From positions 750,001 to 782,000 of the forward strand of contig NC_002937.3 in the NCBI RefSeq assembly GCF_000195755.1: DNA of 32,000 nucleotides, given 5' to 3'. The DNA comes from Nitratidesulfovibrio vulgaris str. Hildenborough (GTDB taxonomy: Bacteria > Desulfobacterota > Desulfovibrionia > Desulfovibrionales > Desulfovibrionaceae). Under the pieces are notes generated by a model, which saw only the letters and a list, made by a program, of their open reading frames with translations, had not been told where the DNA came from and made no database searches. This document shows, piece by piece, positions 597-11,253 of this stretch; the first letter of the stretch is position 1, and the number at the start of each line of letters is the position of its first letter. The translations under genes were made by a program, and so were the position numbers.

Positions 597-641
597 GTGC
601 GGAAAAGCACGTGCGAATACGCACGGCGTGCGATTGCGCAC
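597..641. promoter_or_regulatory. three tandem palindromic sites, likely upstream activating sequence for an enhancer-binding protein
   Basis: GTGCGgaaaAGCAC (597..610), GTGCGaataCGCAC (611..624) and GTGCGattgCGCAC (628..641). The last site overlaps the first base of the response-regulator stop codon at 641..643. Confidence 0.55.
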
Positions 642-2107
642 TATTTGCGGAGGCGGCGCAGCAGGGCGAAGCGCGAGAGGCCGAGAAGGGTGGCCGCGCG
701 GGTCTTGTTTCCGTTGCAGCGTTGCAGGGCCTGTTCTACGAGGCGTTCGACGAACTCATGCAGGTTCATGCCCTCGTCAGGGATGCGAAAGTCTTCCGGT
801 GTCGACGTGAGGACTTCGTTGGCAGGGGGGCCCTCGGACCCGGTCCTGTGGGACACATCGTCCGAAAGCCTGATGGGGAGGACGAGGTGCTCCGGGCGAA
901 GCAGCGTCCCGTCATGCAGCAGGACCGCGCGTTCGATGGTGTTTTCCAGTTCGCGGACGTTACCCTTCCAGACGGCGCTTTGCAGCAGGGCGAGTGCTTC
1001 ATCGTCGATGCCCGTGAATTGCTTTTTCTTGCGGGCGGCTTCCCGGCGCAGGAAGAGGGCTGCCATCTCCGGGATGTCTTCGCGCCTTTCACGCAACGGT
1101 GGCAGGATGAGGTGCCCGACCCGAAGCCGATGATAGAGGTCGCGTCTGAACAGGCCGTTTTCGACCATCTGCTCGAGGTCGCGGTTGGCCGCGCATACGA
1201 TGCGTGCGCGGAAGTTGCGCCGCTTGAGGCCGCCCAGCCTGTAGAAGGTGCGTTCTTCAAGGACGCGCAAGAGCTTGGGTTGCAGATGCAAGGGCAGTTC
1301 AGCCACTTCGTCCAGGAAAAGAGTGCCGTCGGCTGCCAGTTCGAGCTTCCCCGGCGAGCCTCCGCTCCGGCTTCCGGTGTAGGCTCCCGCCTCGTGTCCG
1401 AAGAGCTCGCTCTCGAACAGTTCGGTGGGGATGGCGGCGCAGTTGAGGTCGATGAAGGGCCTGTCGTCGCCGTCGTGTCCGAAATGGACGAGTCTTGCCA
1501 CGACCTCCTTGCCGGTGCCCGTTTCGCCTTCGACAAGGACGGGTACGGAAGGGTCGGCATGGAAGATGGCGGCTTCTTCGAGGATGCGCCGCATGGCGGG
1601 CGAGGCTGTGACGATGTCTCCGATGCCCGAGACGTTGCGAAGCCGCAGACGAGCCGCTTCAAGGTCCTGCCGCAATGCCGTTGTGGCCTGCGCAACACGT
1701 CCTTCCATGTCGGAACGGAGAGTGGCGTTTTCCGAGACCAGCGCCATATGCTCTGCACAGCGGTCGACCACGATGGCGAGTTCGCGGGCGTTGATGGGCT
1801 TGTTGAGGTAGTCGTAGGCCCCGCGTCGCAGGGCTTCCACGGCTGTCTCCATGTCGCCGTGGCCGGTGATGAGGACCACATTGCTCTTCGCCGTGGCCGT
1901 ATCCGACTTGAGGTGGGCGAGAAGCTCAAGCCCGTCCATGTCAGGCATGCGGATGTCGGTGATTATCAGCGGGTAGAACGTACGGGCCGCTTCTTCGATG
2001 GCCCGGTGCGGATGCGGCACGGCAGTGGCCTGATGCCCGAGGTCTTCCAGCACGGTGCGGAGGCTTTCGAGGCTGGTGGCGTTGTCATCGACTATCAGGA
2101 TGCGCAA
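641..2107 (-). CDS. sigma54-dependent response regulator (NtrC family enhancer-binding protein)
   Basis: REC domain (MRILIVDD...ITDIRMPDMDG). AAA+ sigma54-interaction domain (GETGTGKE, ESELFGHEAGAYTGS, LFLDEV). C-terminal Fis-type HTH (NKTRAATLLGLSRFALLRRLRK). TTG start at 2107 with GGAGA 7 nt upstream. Overlaps the upstream kinase gene by 13 nt. Confidence 0.95.
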   Translation of the reverse strand: MRILIVDDNATSLESLRTVLEDLGHQATAVPHPHRAIEEAARTFYPLIITDIRMPDMDGLELLAHLKSDTATAKSNVVLITGHGDMETAVEALRRGAYDYLNKPINARELAIVVDRCAEHMALVSENATLRSDMEGRVAQATTALRQDLEAARLRLRNVSGIGDIVTASPAMRRILEEAAIFHADPSVPVLVEGETGTGKEVVARLVHFGHDGDDRPFIDLNCAAIPTELFESELFGHEAGAYTGSRSGGSPGKLELAADGTLFLDEVAELPLHLQPKLLRVLEERTFYRLGGLKRRNFRARIVCAANRDLEQMVENGLFRRDLYHRLRVGHLILPPLRERREDIPEMAALFLRREAARKKKQFTGIDDEALALLQSAVWKGNVRELENTIERAVLLHDGTLLRPEHLVLPIRLSDDVSHRTGSEGPPANEVLTSTPEDFRIPDEGMNLHEFVERLVEQALQRCNGNKTRAATLLGLSRFALLRRLRK

Positions 2108-4026
2108 GACGGGTCTCCGTTATCAGGCGTTGGTGCCGGTCCAAGACCGGAAGGGGACGGGCGGGAAGCTGCAGGACACGGGGGGGCTGCCTCCGAAGCG
2201 TTGAGCATGATGGTGAAAACCGCCCCGGTTCGTGGGGGGCGCCTGCTTGCTGCGGTGATGGTGCCGCCCCACGATTCGACGAACCCGTGGACCAGCGCAA
2301 GGCCCAGCCCCATGCCGGAATGGGCGTCCTTGGTGGTGAAGAAGGGGTCGAACACCCTGTCCTCCATGAGGCCGAGACCGGGCCCGTTGTCCTCGACGGA
2401 GAGCGCGACCCGGTTTCCGTGGCGTCTTGCAGAGACGGTGATGTCGCGCGCAGGCTGTCGTGATGCGTCGAGCGCGTGCATGGCGTTGACGATGAGGTTG
2501 ATCAGGGTCTGTTCAAGCTGCACTGGAACGGCGAGCACATCAGGAAGGTCGGGCGCGATGTCGAGCGACGCGTCGATGCCGTGATTGCGCAACTGCGCCC
2601 CGATGAGACCGAAGGCCTCGGCACAGGCATGGGCGATGGACGTGGGACGACACTGGATATCACCGTGCGTGACCAGCGCCCGCATGTGCTCGATGATGTC
2701 ACGTATGCGGTCCGCCTCGCGCAGGATGCGCGACAGCCGTTCGAGGAGCATGTCGCGGTCGACCACAGGTCGCTTCTCCACCAGCATCTCAAGCCCCCCG
2801 GCATACAGCCGCAACGCGCTCAGGGGCTGGTTGATTTCATGCGCGACGCCTGTGGCCAGTGTACCCAGTGCCTCCAGCCTGCGCGCCTGTGCCAGTTGAC
2901 GTTCGACGCGCAGCCGGTCGGTCTCGTCGTCAAGCATGATGACGGCCGCTTCGACAGACTGGCCCTGCGTGGAGATGGGGCAGGCCTGTAGCCTGAAGTT
3001 GCGCTCTTCGGGCTGCCCCGGCAGGTGCAGTACGAAGCTGCGCTGGTGCGTTGCGCCGTCTCGGAAGACATCGATGGCCGGGCAGCCTGAACAGCGGCTG
3101 TTGCCATCACCGCAGAAGTCATGAAGCAGTCTGCACAGGGGCATGCCCACTGGGTCGAGGCCGAACCACTGCAACATGCGGGGGTTGGCCGCTTCTATGC
3201 GCAGGGCGGGGTCGATGACGGCAATGCCCTGCGCAAGGTTGTCGGTAATCGACCGTGAACGCTCCTCGCTGCGTGAGAGCGCTTCAAGGGCCTTCACGCC
3301 TGTGGTGATGTCGAGCCCCAGTTTGAGCACAAGGGATGAGCCGTCGATATCCTCGAAGGGATAGGCGTACACCCTGAAGGCCGAACCGTTCTTCCGGGTC
3401 CAGTCGCTGACGCAGAGTGTGCGGGTCTCGAAGACTTCGCATGGCGGGCAGTGCGCACAGGGCGTGGGACTGCCGCGCAGTACTTCGTGGCAGGCCTTGC
3501 CCACCCCGGGGCCGAACAACTGCCGAGAAGCCCTGTTCTCGTAGCGAATCCTGTGGTCGGAACCTATCAGCATCACGTATCCCGGCAGCCTGTCCAGAAG
3601 GTTGAGCAGGCGCGAGCGTTCACTGCGAAGGTCGCCGGTGGGTATGCTCTCGGCAAGCGGCAGCGGCATGGCGGCGATGGTGGCACCGCTGCCCACGGGT
3701 CTGGCCGCTATCTGGATGTGGACGGGGCCCGAACGGCCACGAAGCGTGAGTGCGAAAGGCGAGAAGTCGCCACTGGCCTGCCGCAGAATGGCCCGTTCTA
3801 TGGTCGGCAGGTTGTTCTCGGACGAGAGGTCCGCGAGTAGCCTCGTGAGGAACTCCGCAGGGGGCCAGCCCGTGAGCGGTTGCAGGACGGCAGCTGTGGT
3901 GCCGAGAGGGGAACCGGAGCAGTCGGGCGCATCGGAAAGCTGCTCGACGAGGCGCGCGACGGCGGACGAGAAAGGGGTGTCCCCTTCAAGGAAGGGGGGA
4001 CTGATGGCGGAGGGGGGCGTGGGCAT
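2095..4026 (-). CDS. cytoplasmic sensor histidine kinase with two Cys-rich PAS domains
   Basis: H-box HEINQPLSAL and a HATPase_c domain (DNGPGL, GMGLGLALV). No TM segment seen. I chose the ATG at 4026 (MPTPPSAISPP...), 2 nt after the upstream gene stop (TGAccATG), because the longer ORF start at 4167 would overlap that gene by about 140 nt. Confidence 0.9.
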   Translation of the reverse strand: MPTPPSAISPPFLEGDTPFSSAVARLVEQLSDAPDCSGSPLGTTAAVLQPLTGWPPAEFLTRLLADLSSENNLPTIERAILRQASGDFSPFALTLRGRSGPVHIQIAARPVGSGATIAAMPLPLAESIPTGDLRSERSRLLNLLDRLPGYVMLIGSDHRIRYENRASRQLFGPGVGKACHEVLRGSPTPCAHCPPCEVFETRTLCVSDWTRKNGSAFRVYAYPFEDIDGSSLVLKLGLDITTGVKALEALSRSEERSRSITDNLAQGIAVIDPALRIEAANPRMLQWFGLDPVGMPLCRLLHDFCGDGNSRCSGCPAIDVFRDGATHQRSFVLHLPGQPEERNFRLQACPISTQGQSVEAAVIMLDDETDRLRVERQLAQARRLEALGTLATGVAHEINQPLSALRLYAGGLEMLVEKRPVVDRDMLLERLSRILREADRIRDIIEHMRALVTHGDIQCRPTSIAHACAEAFGLIGAQLRNHGIDASLDIAPDLPDVLAVPVQLEQTLINLIVNAMHALDASRQPARDITVSARRHGNRVALSVEDNGPGLGLMEDRVFDPFFTTKDAHSGMGLGLALVHGFVESWGGTITAASRRPPRTGAVFTIMLNASEAAPPCPAASRPSPSGLGPAPTPDNGDPSCAS

Positions 4027-4028
4027 GG

Positions 4029-6032
4029 TCAGTCTGTGGTGTGTTCGATGGGGGGCACTTCCGTCGTGCCCATGCCGGACAGAATGAGGCCGATGGTGCG
4101 CGAGAGCAATGATTCCAGTCGTGGAACGAGTTGCCTTGCTCCTGCGGTGTCGTCTTCGACAAGGCACAATCCCACGCGTTCCGTCAACATGGCAAGGGCC
4201 ACGGCGCCAGCATGCTCCGAAGCGAGGCGCAGCCGTTTGTTGAAGCGTGCGGCTTGTTGTGCGTCACCTTCTTCAAGGGCTCCGGCGAGCAGAGCGAAAT
4301 GCCGGGGGGCCTCATCGCAGAACGCCTTCCAGACCGGTTCGACAAGGTTGTGGTCTCCCCCGTGCCGCCGGACGACCTCGGACGGGGCAAGCAGGGCCGA
4401 CCTGTCGGGGATGACGGGAATGTCCCGCGCAGACGATGCCGAAAGGGCGAACCTGTCGAGCATGGCGTTGAAGGCTCGGGCGTTGATGGGCTTGGCGATG
4501 TAGTCGGTCATGCCCGAAGCCAGGAAGCGTTCGCGGTCGCCCTTGAGGGCATGTGCCGTGACGGCTACGACGGGGATGTTGCGGTCGACTCCGGGGTACT
4601 GGGCGTTGCGGATGCGTCGCAGCAATTCCAGCCCGCCCATGGGGTGCATCTTGACGTCCAGCAGGACGAGGTCGAACCGGTCGGCGGTGAGTCGCTGGAG
4701 GGCCGTGGCACCATCGTGGGCGCAGGCACAGACATGCCCTCTCTTGCGGAGCATCTTGCAGGTTATCGTCCGGCCCGTGGCGTCATCGTCCACCACCAGC
4801 ACCCGAAGCGGGCGTGCTCCTGATGCGGGTGTCGCTGAAGAGGTCGGGGCCTGAGCGTGTTCGGAAGGTGTGTTGATGGCAGGCGTCTCGGGCCGTAGAC
4901 GGCAGGTGAAGTGAAAGCTGCTTCCCTGTCCTTCGCTACTGCGGGCCCATATGCTGCCGCCCATGATTTCGACGAGGTTTCGGCAGATGGCGAGACCAAG
5001 CCCCGTGCCGCCATAGCGTTGGACCGTCTCTTCTGCACCCTGGCTGAACGCCTCGAAGATGGTGCGGAGGTGTTCATCGGCGATGCCGATGCCCGTGTCG
5101 CGAATGGAGAACAGCAGGGTGAGGCTTGAGGGCGGCCCGTCGGGAAAGAGCGATTCGAGAAGCGTCTGGTCCTGGGGGATGGCGCTCACTTCGATGATGA
5201 CCGAGCCCTTGTGGGTGAACTTGACGGCATTGCCGACGAGGTTGGCGAGTACCTGTGTAAGGCGTGTCGCGTCGCCTGTCAGTCTGTCCGGGACATCGGG
5301 CGTTACACGGAAGTCCAGGGAGATGTTCTTGCGTTCGGCTTCCGACCGCGATGCCTGCACAACCTGCTTCAGCAGTCTATCCAGTGAGAAGGGACGTTCC
5401 ACAAGCCGCAACTGGCGAGCCTCAAGCCGGGAGAAGTCGAGCACGTCGTGCAGCAGGGTGAGCAGCGTCTCGGAAGATGCAAGGACGGTGTTCAGGCTTT
5501 CGCGTTGTTCGCCCGACAGCGGGGTATCGAGGACCAGTTCCGTCATGCCCACGATGCCGTTCAGGGTGTTGCGTATTTCGTGGCTCATGCCTGCGAGGAA
5601 CGACGTCTTCGCAAGGCTGGCATGTTCCGCAGCCTGTCGGGCTTCGTCGATTTCGCGAACGGCCCTGTGCTTGAGCAGGGCGACCTCGATGGTGGAGTAG
5701 AGTTCGCGTTCGGCAAAGGGCTTGACAAGAAAGCCGAACGGCCCGGCTTTCATGGCCCTTGAGAGGGTCGCTTCGTCGGAGAAGGCGGTGAGAAAGACGA
5801 CAGGAATGTCGAACTGGTTGGTGATGACATGGGCGGCGTCTACGCCGTCACCGCGCCGCAGGCGGATGTCCATCAGAACGAGGTCCGGCCTGAGACGCTT
5901 CGCCGCATCGATGGCTCCGTCTGCATCCGTCTCGACGGCAGGCACTATGTACCCAAGACCTTCGAGCGTGCGCCGTAGATCAAGTGCGACGATCTGTTCG
6001 TCGTCGACGACGATGATACGAAGATTCGGCAT
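4029..6032 (-). CDS. hybrid histidine kinase: REC - HisKA/HATPase - REC - HPt-like tail
   Basis: N-terminal REC (RIIVVDDEQ...LVLMDIRL). H-box SHEIRNTLNGIVG. G2 box GTGLGLAICRNLVEIMGG. Second REC (RVLVVDDD...LVLLDVKM). C-terminal four-helix HPt-like region. ATG at 6032 (MPNLRIIVVDD) preceded by GGAG; the ORF-track start at 6086 is TTG with no RBS. Confidence 0.9.
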   Translation of the reverse strand: MPNLRIIVVDDEQIVALDLRRTLEGLGYIVPAVETDADGAIDAAKRLRPDLVLMDIRLRRGDGVDAAHVITNQFDIPVVFLTAFSDEATLSRAMKAGPFGFLVKPFAERELYSTIEVALLKHRAVREIDEARQAAEHASLAKTSFLAGMSHEIRNTLNGIVGMTELVLDTPLSGEQRESLNTVLASSETLLTLLHDVLDFSRLEARQLRLVERPFSLDRLLKQVVQASRSEAERKNISLDFRVTPDVPDRLTGDATRLTQVLANLVGNAVKFTHKGSVIIEVSAIPQDQTLLESLFPDGPPSSLTLLFSIRDTGIGIADEHLRTIFEAFSQGAEETVQRYGGTGLGLAICRNLVEIMGGSIWARSSEGQGSSFHFTCRLRPETPAINTPSEHAQAPTSSATPASGARPLRVLVVDDDATGRTITCKMLRKRGHVCACAHDGATALQRLTADRFDLVLLDVKMHPMGGLELLRRIRNAQYPGVDRNIPVVAVTAHALKGDRERFLASGMTDYIAKPINARAFNAMLDRFALSASSARDIPVIPDRSALLAPSEVVRRHGGDHNLVEPVWKAFCDEAPRHFALLAGALEEGDAQQAARFNKRLRLASEHAGAVALAMLTERVGLCLVEDDTAGARQLVPRLESLLSRTIGLILSGMGTTEVPPIEHTTD

Positions 6033-6155
6033 GTATCTCCGGTTCCGGGTTTCTTCGTGTATGCCCCGAAAAGGCTTCACATGCAAGGCGCGCCAAGGCC
6101 CGGAAAAGGCAGGAACGGCCCGGATTCCACGTGAGGGCTGGCGGTGAAGGGGCGA

Positions 6156-7067: not shown

Positions 7068-7135
7068 AGAAGAGTACGCTCCGCGCTCCGGTTGCATGGA
7101 GCTAAAGGTCTTGCGTATGGCGTACTATGGCGAGC

Positions 7136-7200
7136 AAAAATCGGGCCACCAACGTGTCTTCGTGGAATCTCCAGCGAAGTGGCACGTATGGTGGCCCGAT
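7136..7200 (-). terminator. probable hflC terminator (long-loop hairpin plus U run)
   Basis: Minus strand AUCGGGCCACC (7200..7190) pairs with GGUGGCCCGAU (7150..7140), followed by a U run (A5 on the + strand at 7136..7140). The large 39-nt interior may fold further. Confidence 0.5.
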
Positions 7201-10740: not shown

Positions 10741-11253
10741 ATGAAGATTCTCAAGGCGAACCGGATGGAGCGCTGTATCGGCTGCCATGCCTGTTCCCTC
10801 GCCTGTGCGCGGCTTGTGCACAAGCGTCTGTCGTGGGTGACGGCCGGAATCCGCATCACGTCGGCAGGCGGGCTTTCGACAGGGTTCGAGGCGCGCCTGT
10901 GTCTTGCCTGCGACCCCGCACCCTGTGCGCAGGCCTGCCCGACCGGTGCCTACGCGCAACGCAAGGGTGGCGGCGTGAAGGTCGACAGGTCGCTGTGCAT
11001 CCGTTGCGGGCGTTGCGCCGAAGCCTGCCCGGTGGATGCCGTGCACATGGACGGTGAGACCGGCCTGCCCTACGTGTGCATCCACTGCGGGCGTTGTGTG
11101 GCCTTCTGCCCCCATGAATGTATCGAACTGGTCGACCAGCCCGTGGCCGATGCCGCATCGGACGAAGCGGGAAGGGAGACGGGTGACGACAAGGCCCTGC
11201 CGCGAAAGGCAGGGCTGGTGAATGACGCTTCGGAGGTGGGGCATGCCGATTGA
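10741..11253 (+). CDS. 4x[4Fe-4S] ferredoxin-type subunit associated with AOR
   Basis: Four Cys clusters: CIGCHACSLAC, CLACDPAPCAQACP, CIRCGRCAEACP and CIHCGRCVAFCP. ATG at 10741 with AAGGAGA 7 nt upstream. The 3' end overlaps the aor start by 11 nt. Confidence 0.9.
   Translation: MKILKANRMERCIGCHACSLACARLVHKRLSWVTAGIRITSAGGLSTGFEARLCLACDPAPCAQACPTGAYAQRKGGGVKVDRSLCIRCGRCAEACPVDAVHMDGETGLPYVCIHCGRCVAFCPHECIELVDQPVADAASDEAGRETGDDKALPRKAGLVNDASEVGHAD

Follow-up and report, generated by a model that had tools for sequence, protein, structure and literature searches.

Organization of the DVU0679 locus

The window analysed here is a stretch of 32,000 nucleotides from Nitratidesulfovibrio vulgaris str. 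Hildenborough (NC_002937.3, positions 750,001 to 782,000), and positions are given in window coordinates unless an orthologous locus is named. Close to one end of the window, a histidine kinase gene is followed on the minus strand by the gene of its response regulator, by three short palindromes (dyads A, B and C), by a sigma-54 (-24/-12) promoter, by a small RNA and, finally, by a gene for a lytic transglycosylase (Table 1).

Table 1. Position, strand and supporting evidence of the features at the locus and of the corresponding RNAs at orthologous loci
Feature	Position	Strand	Basis or remark
DVU0677, SLT_2 lytic transglycosylase, lipoprotein-like signal peptide	ATG at 287	minus	Domain search
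Dv-sRNA2, ~155 nt	330-488, both ends approximate	minus	Fold, ortholog conservation, published tiling arrays
Sigma-54 (-24/-12) promoter TGGCACaccatTTGCT	514-499	minus	No other exact TGGCAC-N5-TTGCW in the window; listed in Kazakov 2015 Additional file 6
Dyad site C, GTGCGgaaaAGCAC	597-610		One mismatch to GTGCG-N4-CGCAC; published 16-mer CGTGCTTTTCCGCACG, -324 from DVU0677
Dyad site B, GTGCGaataCGCAC	611-624		Exact GTGCG-N4-CGCAC; published 16-mer CGTGCGTATTCGCACG, -338 from DVU0677; Rajeev 2011 Tables S6, S7, S9
Dyad site A, GTGCGattgCGCAC	628-641		Exact GTGCG-N4-CGCAC; published 16-mer AGTGCGCAATCGCACG, -355 from DVU0677; position kept in orthologous loci
DVU0679, NtrC-family response regulator / sigma-54 activator, 488 aa	641-2107	minus	Pfam domains; TAG stop 643-641
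DVU0680, cognate histidine kinase (PAS, HisKA, HATPase_c)	2095-4167	minus	Pfam; Rajeev 2011 Table S1
Poly-C RNA, ortholog L084	3621-3787		
Poly-C RNA, ortholog L085	3623-3797		
Poly-C RNA, ortholog L086	3624-3795		
Poly-C RNA, ortholog L087	3718-3918		
Poly-C RNA, ortholog L088	3626-3857		
Poly-C RNA, ortholog L089	3623-3824		
Poly-C RNA, ortholog L091	3650-3859		

The regulator, DVU0679, contains the Pfam domains Response_reg, Sigma54_activat (2e-59), AAA_lid_14 and HTH_8. In a published inventory of response regulators, it is listed as a REC-AAA-DBD protein of 488 aa with the gene name luxO and with DVU0680 as its cognate kinase (Table S1 of Rajeev et al. 2011, Genome Biol 12:R99, PMC3333781). 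Its loop reads GAYTGS, which is a rare variant of GAFTGA and has been assigned to DVU0679 before (Table 1 of Kazakov et al. 2015, BMC Genomics 16:919, PMC4641369). An exact protein look-up shows that the identical protein is encoded in D. vulgaris RCH1 (CP002297.1, about 752-760 kb), a strain whose set of response regulators is that of strain Hildenborough (Rajeev 2011).

The DVU0680 gene overlaps the start of the DVU0679 gene, and the presence of a kinase gene upstream of the regulator is kept in orthologous loci. Upstream of DVU0680, in turn, lies a gene for a hybrid kinase (Response_reg, HisKA, HATPase_c, Response_reg; 4029-6086, minus strand), which recurs in loci L001, L084, L086, L090 and L091. 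Because this gene recurs in several orthologous loci, the gene order suggests a conserved three-gene signalling cluster that would feed DVU0679, possibly through a phosphorelay.

Elsewhere in the window, a sequence with one mismatch to the sigma-54 promoter pattern, TGGCCCGATTTTTGCT, is found at 7133-7148 on the minus strand. It corresponds to the published DVU0682 promoter (GGTGGCCCGATTTTTGCTC), which has been assigned to the regulator DVU0744 (Kazakov 2015 Additional file 6).

The dyad array

All three dyads lie inside 45 bp, with start-to-start spacings of 14 bp from C to B and of 17 bp from B to A. A previous reading of this DNA, made from the sequence only, had placed three palindromes at 597-610, 611-624 and 628-641, the first two contiguous and the third 17 nt further on. 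Both its coordinates and its spacings were recovered, two of the palindromes being exact and that at 597-610 carrying one mismatch. The outer sites, A and C, are 31 bp apart, with site B in between. This distance amounts to about three helical turns and would thus bring the outer sites to the same face of the DNA. In addition, site A touches the end of the regulator gene. The overlap had been described as involving the first base of the stop codon; base 641 is indeed shared, and it comes first only when the plus strand is read ('cta'); in the coding direction, on the minus strand, it closes the TAG codon.

A pattern search of the 32 kb window found the exact motif GTGCG-N4-CGCAC only twice, at sites B and A. 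Apart from the array, dyads with at most one mismatch occur only at 10908 and 26640, both of them isolated. Such lone sites are unsurprising, as about 4.2 sites with at most one mismatch are expected by chance per window. The effect of chance on clustering was assessed by simulating the window 4000 times with a first-order Markov model; at least two exact sites appeared in 1.2% of the simulated windows and two sites within 50 bp in 2.9%, while three sites within 50 bp appeared in none of the 4000. A hand-calculated expectation gives about 7e-5 such triples per window. The dyad cluster at 597-641 is far beyond chance.

Measured from promoter position 514, the array lies at 83 bp (its near edge, 597) to 127 bp (its far edge, 641), which is close to the 85-140 bp upstream of the -24/-12 element that had been estimated earlier. 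The promoter itself has been published as CATGGCACACCATTTGCTA, given for an 'ncRNA downstream of DVU0679' (Kazakov 2015 Additional file 6), and its geometry would place the start of transcription of the small RNA near 488. No IHF-like site was found in the spacer between array and promoter, where the best matches carry 4 mismatches; consequently, looping of this DNA would need to be intrinsic or to involve another protein. In general terms, what is expected of an NtrC-type upstream activating sequence (UAS) is found together at this locus: clustered dyads, a distance of about 80-200 bp to a -24/-12 (GG-N10-GC) promoter, a cognate AAA+ activator that has a GAFTGA-type loop and a C-terminal HTH, and co-conservation.

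Conservation in orthologous loci

A protein search returned many DVU0679 orthologs with identities of 56-89%, and eight of their loci were taken by exact-protein look-up. Three dyads are present in seven of the eight (regulator 59-89% identical), among them those of D. mangrovi, an Oleidesulfovibrio and a Halodesulfovibrio. In these seven loci, the first dyad begins 0-72 bp past the regulator stop, the dyads are spaced by 17-18 and 14 bp, the outer pair is 31-32 bp apart, and a -24/-12 element follows 96-121 bp beyond the third dyad. The Oleidesulfovibrio half-sites read GTGCA/TGCAC, that is, two mismatches per site. Within the ortholog loci, of about 5.4 kb each, the post-stop dyads are the only matching sites, except for a stray one at position 451 of L089.

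When the ortholog loci are aligned, invariance is limited to the half-sites (GTGC...GCAC) and to GG/GC in the promoter, while the spacer DNA and the flanks diverge. Half-sites that stay fixed amid diverged flanks and spacer are a classic phylogenetic footprint. On the side of the protein, the HTH pattern GNK[TS]..A..LG[LIV]SR[FY]AL.R[RK] and GAYTGS are conserved in the ortholog regulators. The sequence-only reading had named the absence of the dyads from orthologous loci that retain the promoter as an argument against the array; in the loci compared, no promoter was retained without the dyads. The array is in this sense a clean textbook three-site enhancer whose spacing of 17-18 and 14 bp is kept across genera. 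For the conservation of the sites, Rajeev 2011 and Kazakov 2015 had listed two species with two sites each; three sites with this spacing are here extended to more genera.

The locus of Megalodesulfovibrio gigas (L090, CP006585.1; 3453-3620 and downstream) has two dyads only, at a distance of 29 bp, and its promoter reads TGGCACgccagATGCA. There, a called ORF of 114 aa (3630-3974) comes next, in place of an immediate poly-C RNA, and poly-C runs are found about 450 nt further. The retention of two sites at 29 bp suggests that the outer pair is the core of the array.

Binding of DVU0679 to the array

Much of what concerns binding at this locus has been published. All three sites are given in Table S7 of Rajeev 2011 with Dv-sRNA2 as their target, and the distances listed there (-324, -338 and -355) are exactly those obtained when 287 is subtracted from the window positions 611, 625 and 642. 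The three sites (Additional file 4) and the promoter are listed again in Kazakov 2015. In DAP-chip, the top peak of DVU0679 runs from the start of DVU0677 into the 3' end of DVU0679 (Rajeev 2011 Table S4); anchored on the offset from the DVU0677 start in that table, we estimate that it covers about 274-942 of the window. In addition, purified DVU0679 shifted a 36-bp oligo, AATCGCACGCCGTGCGTATTCGCACGTGCTTTTCCG, in an EMSA, and an oligo in which the middle dyad B was mutated (GGAGAGTATTCGGAT) gave no shift (Rajeev 2011 Table S6). The shifted oligo is identical to window positions 636-601 on the minus strand. The protein used in these binding assays was unphosphorylated and made in E. coli (Rajeev 2011). 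As the mutant oligo bears on the middle dyad alone, individual occupancy of sites A and C is predicted from motif similarity and conservation.

The proposal that the adjacent NtrC-family regulator binds the array is, therefore, borne out in vitro by the top DAP-chip peak and by the dyad-dependent EMSA. The motif had also been put forward as directly testable. EMSA, DAP and a genome-wide motif scan have already been published, and since in vitro binding dates from 2011, the motif is no longer merely testable. That scan gave two more high-scoring matches to the DVU0679 motif, near DVU2822 at -1898 and near DVU3137 at -817 (Rajeev 2011 Table S9). Both are within genes or distant from them and coincide with DAP-chip peaks; as a speculation, undiscovered ncRNAs have been proposed for these positions (Rajeev 2011).

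DVU0679 is not named in the reporter-assay section of Rajeev 2011, and in the literature searched there is no report of in vivo enhancer function, such as loss of the small RNA on deletion of the sites, of DVU0679 or of rpoN. The same literature holds no later paper that mentions DVU0679, DVU0680, DVU0677 or the ortholog locus tags, and nothing beyond Rajeev 2011 and Kazakov 2015 on Dv-sRNA2, DVU0681 or C-rich Desulfovibrio sRNAs.

Two discrepancies were observed in the additional files (2, 4 and 6) of Kazakov 2015. The site coordinates in Additional file 4 (749933-749964) disagree with the value of 750515 that Additional file 6 gives for the promoter, and the C-terminal HTH of DVU0679 (NLHEFVERLVEQALQRCNGNKTRAATLLGLSRFALLRRLRK) stands beside the label DVU0744. 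These mismatches may stem from rows or coordinates that were shifted in the files themselves or on text extraction.

It is conceivable that another regulator, either a paralogous activator or a repressor, is the main protein at these sites in vivo, and that binding by DVU0679 is an in vitro cross-reaction. D. vulgaris has 37 sigma-54 activators (Kazakov 2015), and paralogs that share one site have been documented for DVU0539 and DVU0946. Nevertheless, the motif is linked to the DVU0679 ortholog across genera, beginning 0-72 bp past its stop. As a control, 80 paralogous activator loci (510 kb; 32-44% identity) were taken from among the matches listed in a genome scan with DVU0679, and these showed 16 single sites and no dyad cluster. 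Moreover, the DAP-chip peak at this locus is the top hit of DVU0679 in particular (Rajeev 2011 Table S4). We consider an involvement of this kind extremely improbable.

The dyads could also act at the level of RNA, as hairpins located where the transcript of the kinase-regulator operon ends, either as an intrinsic terminator or as a stabiliser of its 3' end. The array begins right at the regulator stop, the region folds as RNA at -23.7 kcal/mol, and a consensus scan flags the middle dyad together with TGCTTTTCCG (610-625, minus strand) as terminator-like. However, the stems have only 5-6 bp with 4-nt loops, and a T-run, itself weak, follows the middle dyad only. In addition, the arms keep their sequence across orthologs (GTGC/GCAC is invariant) and show no compensatory changes, the three-unit 17/14 spacing is kept although a terminator would not need it, and what purified DVU0679 binds, in a dyad-dependent manner, is a double-stranded oligo (Rajeev 2011). 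Sequence conservation without covariation, fixed spacing and the EMSA led us to reject termination as the main function of the dyads, and it is very unlikely that the array exists for this purpose. A secondary role of the middle dyad in ending the operon transcript could, to judge from its sequence, accompany its role as a binding site for DVU0679.

The small RNA Dv-sRNA2

The published target of DVU0679 is an sRNA encoded downstream of the regulator gene, and tiling arrays show that this RNA is expressed (Rajeev 2011 section 21). The computed fold of Dv-sRNA2 (-76.5 kcal/mol, z = -7.6) consists of three stem-loops, whose loops hold runs of C7, C8 and C7. The last hairpin is terminator-like, with a GC-rich stem of 15 bp followed by CUUUU. 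On the plus strand, the C runs correspond to G7-8 runs at 359-365, 408-415 and 457-463, which are three of the five such runs in the whole window.

The same three hairpins are found in seven ortholog loci; their C6-C9 runs are placed at the loops or close to them, and the terminator is the last of the three. In the minimum free energy folds, two or three of the C runs are placed inside hairpin loops, with the exception of L087, where this is the case for the terminator loop only. Six of the nine pairs in the terminator stem carry compensatory changes. The architecture was taken from folds of the individual sequences, since the MAFFT/RNAalifold consensus misaligned hairpins 1 and 2 and gave the terminator helix alone. 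An RNA of about 155-230 nt with three poly-C (C6-C9) loops is kept beside DVU0679 orthologs across Desulfovibrionaceae, including Nitratidesulfovibrio, Oleidesulfovibrio, Halodesulfovibrio and D. mangrovi.

An Rfam scan of the window found no family at the gathering threshold, and Qrr, GlmY/GlmZ and other relevant families gave no match at E <= 1. The best hit, to the 6C RNA (RF01066), has 28.9 bits (E = 0.31) and stays below that family's gathering score of 47; membership of Dv-sRNA2 in an Rfam family was rejected on this basis. A search of the literature, from which most subscription-journal papers were left out, found no functional study of Dv-sRNA2. Tentatively, the poly-C RNA might act in trans as a riboregulator, its C-rich loops pairing with G-rich ribosome-binding regions; we hold this to be a real possibility, with the odds somewhat against it.

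The downstream gene DVU0677

The gene that follows the small RNA encodes an SLT_2 protein in the four closest loci only. In more distant ortholog loci, the next gene encodes a DHBP synthase or a Peripla_BP_6 periplasmic binding protein, or else it lies on the opposite strand and encodes ABC_tran/BioY or PAS proteins. As the next gene varies in this way, DVU0677 is not a conserved member of the regulon.

These observations bear on whether the array serves as an enhancer for DVU0677, the 'sRNA' being merely the long 5' leader of that gene. DVU0677 shares the strand of the promoter and is found about 200 bp past it, it is a named qPCR and EMSA target (Rajeev 2011 Tables S3 and S6), SLT_2 genes come next in the four closest loci, and the T-run of the terminator is short. 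Nevertheless, the RNA is parted from the gene by a strong, GC-rich hairpin of 15 bp with CUUUU, whose stem covaries, and distant loci have other or opposite-strand next genes while the sites, the promoter and the poly-C RNA are kept. Furthermore, Rajeev 2011 and Kazakov 2015 both assign an ncRNA as the target, with tiling-array support. A leader of DVU0677 is, on balance, an unlikely account of this RNA. Some read-through into DVU0677 in D. vulgaris is possible, given the short T-run (CUUUU).

Since the sites, the promoter and the poly-C RNA are kept while the next gene varies, the conserved target is the sRNA, in agreement with Rajeev 2011 and Kazakov 2015. The conserved output of DVU0680/DVU0679 is, in other words, this small RNA, a putative riboregulator, rather than DVU0677. 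The initial suggestion that the regulator acts on the downstream promoter agrees with the literature, where both sites and promoter are assigned to DVU0679; what needs amendment is the target, which as published is a small RNA and not a protein gene.

Proposed mechanism of activation

Taken as a whole, the locus is best explained if the three dyads are a UAS (enhancer) for the adjacent DVU0679 and drive Dv-sRNA2 through the sigma-54 promoter. To this explanation, which rests on published in vitro binding and on conservation, we give a probability of roughly 0.92. The array, the regulator, the promoter and the assignment of the target were already known from the studies of 2011 and 2015, including in vitro validation. 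What is new here, in addition to the wider distribution of the three-site array described above, is that the downstream protein gene is outside the conserved unit and that the poly-C-loop sRNA is conserved and has no Rfam family.

In the proposed sequence of events, dimers of DVU0679 would bind the three CGTGCG-N4-CGCACG sites through their C-terminal Fis-type HTH, a step that the published DAP-chip and EMSA have demonstrated in vitro. Going by the mechanism of the NtrC family, DVU0680 would then phosphorylate DVU0679, and the bound dimers would assemble into an active AAA+ ring. About 100 bp of DNA would loop out, so that the ring could contact the sigma-54 polymerase held in its closed form at TGGCAC-N5-TTGCT (514-499), and ATP hydrolysis would drive the formation of the open complex; both steps are modelled on the same family. 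The resulting transcript would be the Dv-sRNA2 of about 155 nt with its three poly-C loops, an RNA whose expression is known from the published tiling arrays.

Comparison with known systems

An arrangement of this kind is that of enteric glnAp2, where some 100-150 bp separate the NtrC dyads from the -24/-12 promoter downstream, with the strong sites about three helical turns apart, and where the NtrC consensus is TGCACC-N5-GGTGCA. The DVU0679 array resembles it in that dyads serve an activator of the REC-AAA+-Fis-type-HTH type and in that the outer pair is 31 bp apart. By contrast, the DVU0679 motif is CGTGCG-N4-CGCACG, the outer pair encloses a third site, the array is located at the 3' end of the regulator gene, and the target is an sRNA.

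With regard to its RNA, Dv-sRNA2 recalls the 6C RNA of Actinobacteria, which likewise has hairpin loops with at least six C and to which the Dv-sRNA2 terminator hairpin is a weak match. The two differ, however, in phylum, in promoter type and in the number of hairpins, and because the score stays below the gathering threshold, Dv-sRNA2 is not a member of the 6C family.

Parallels to the circuit are found in GlrK/GlrR-glmY of Enterobacteriaceae and LuxO-Qrr of Vibrio. In both systems, an NtrC-type regulator activates the sigma-54 promoter of an adjacent sRNA gene, and in the case of glmY there are three GlrR sites upstream. The DVU0679 locus shares with them an sRNA gene that is adjacent to the regulator and has a sigma-54 promoter, whereas the motifs and the sRNA sequences are unrelated, and the poly-C loops are a trait of Dv-sRNA2. 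If the poly-C RNA does act in trans as a riboregulator, DVU0680/DVU0679 would be a dedicated two-component-to-sRNA switch in sulfate reducers, like LuxO-Qrr or GlrR-GlmY.
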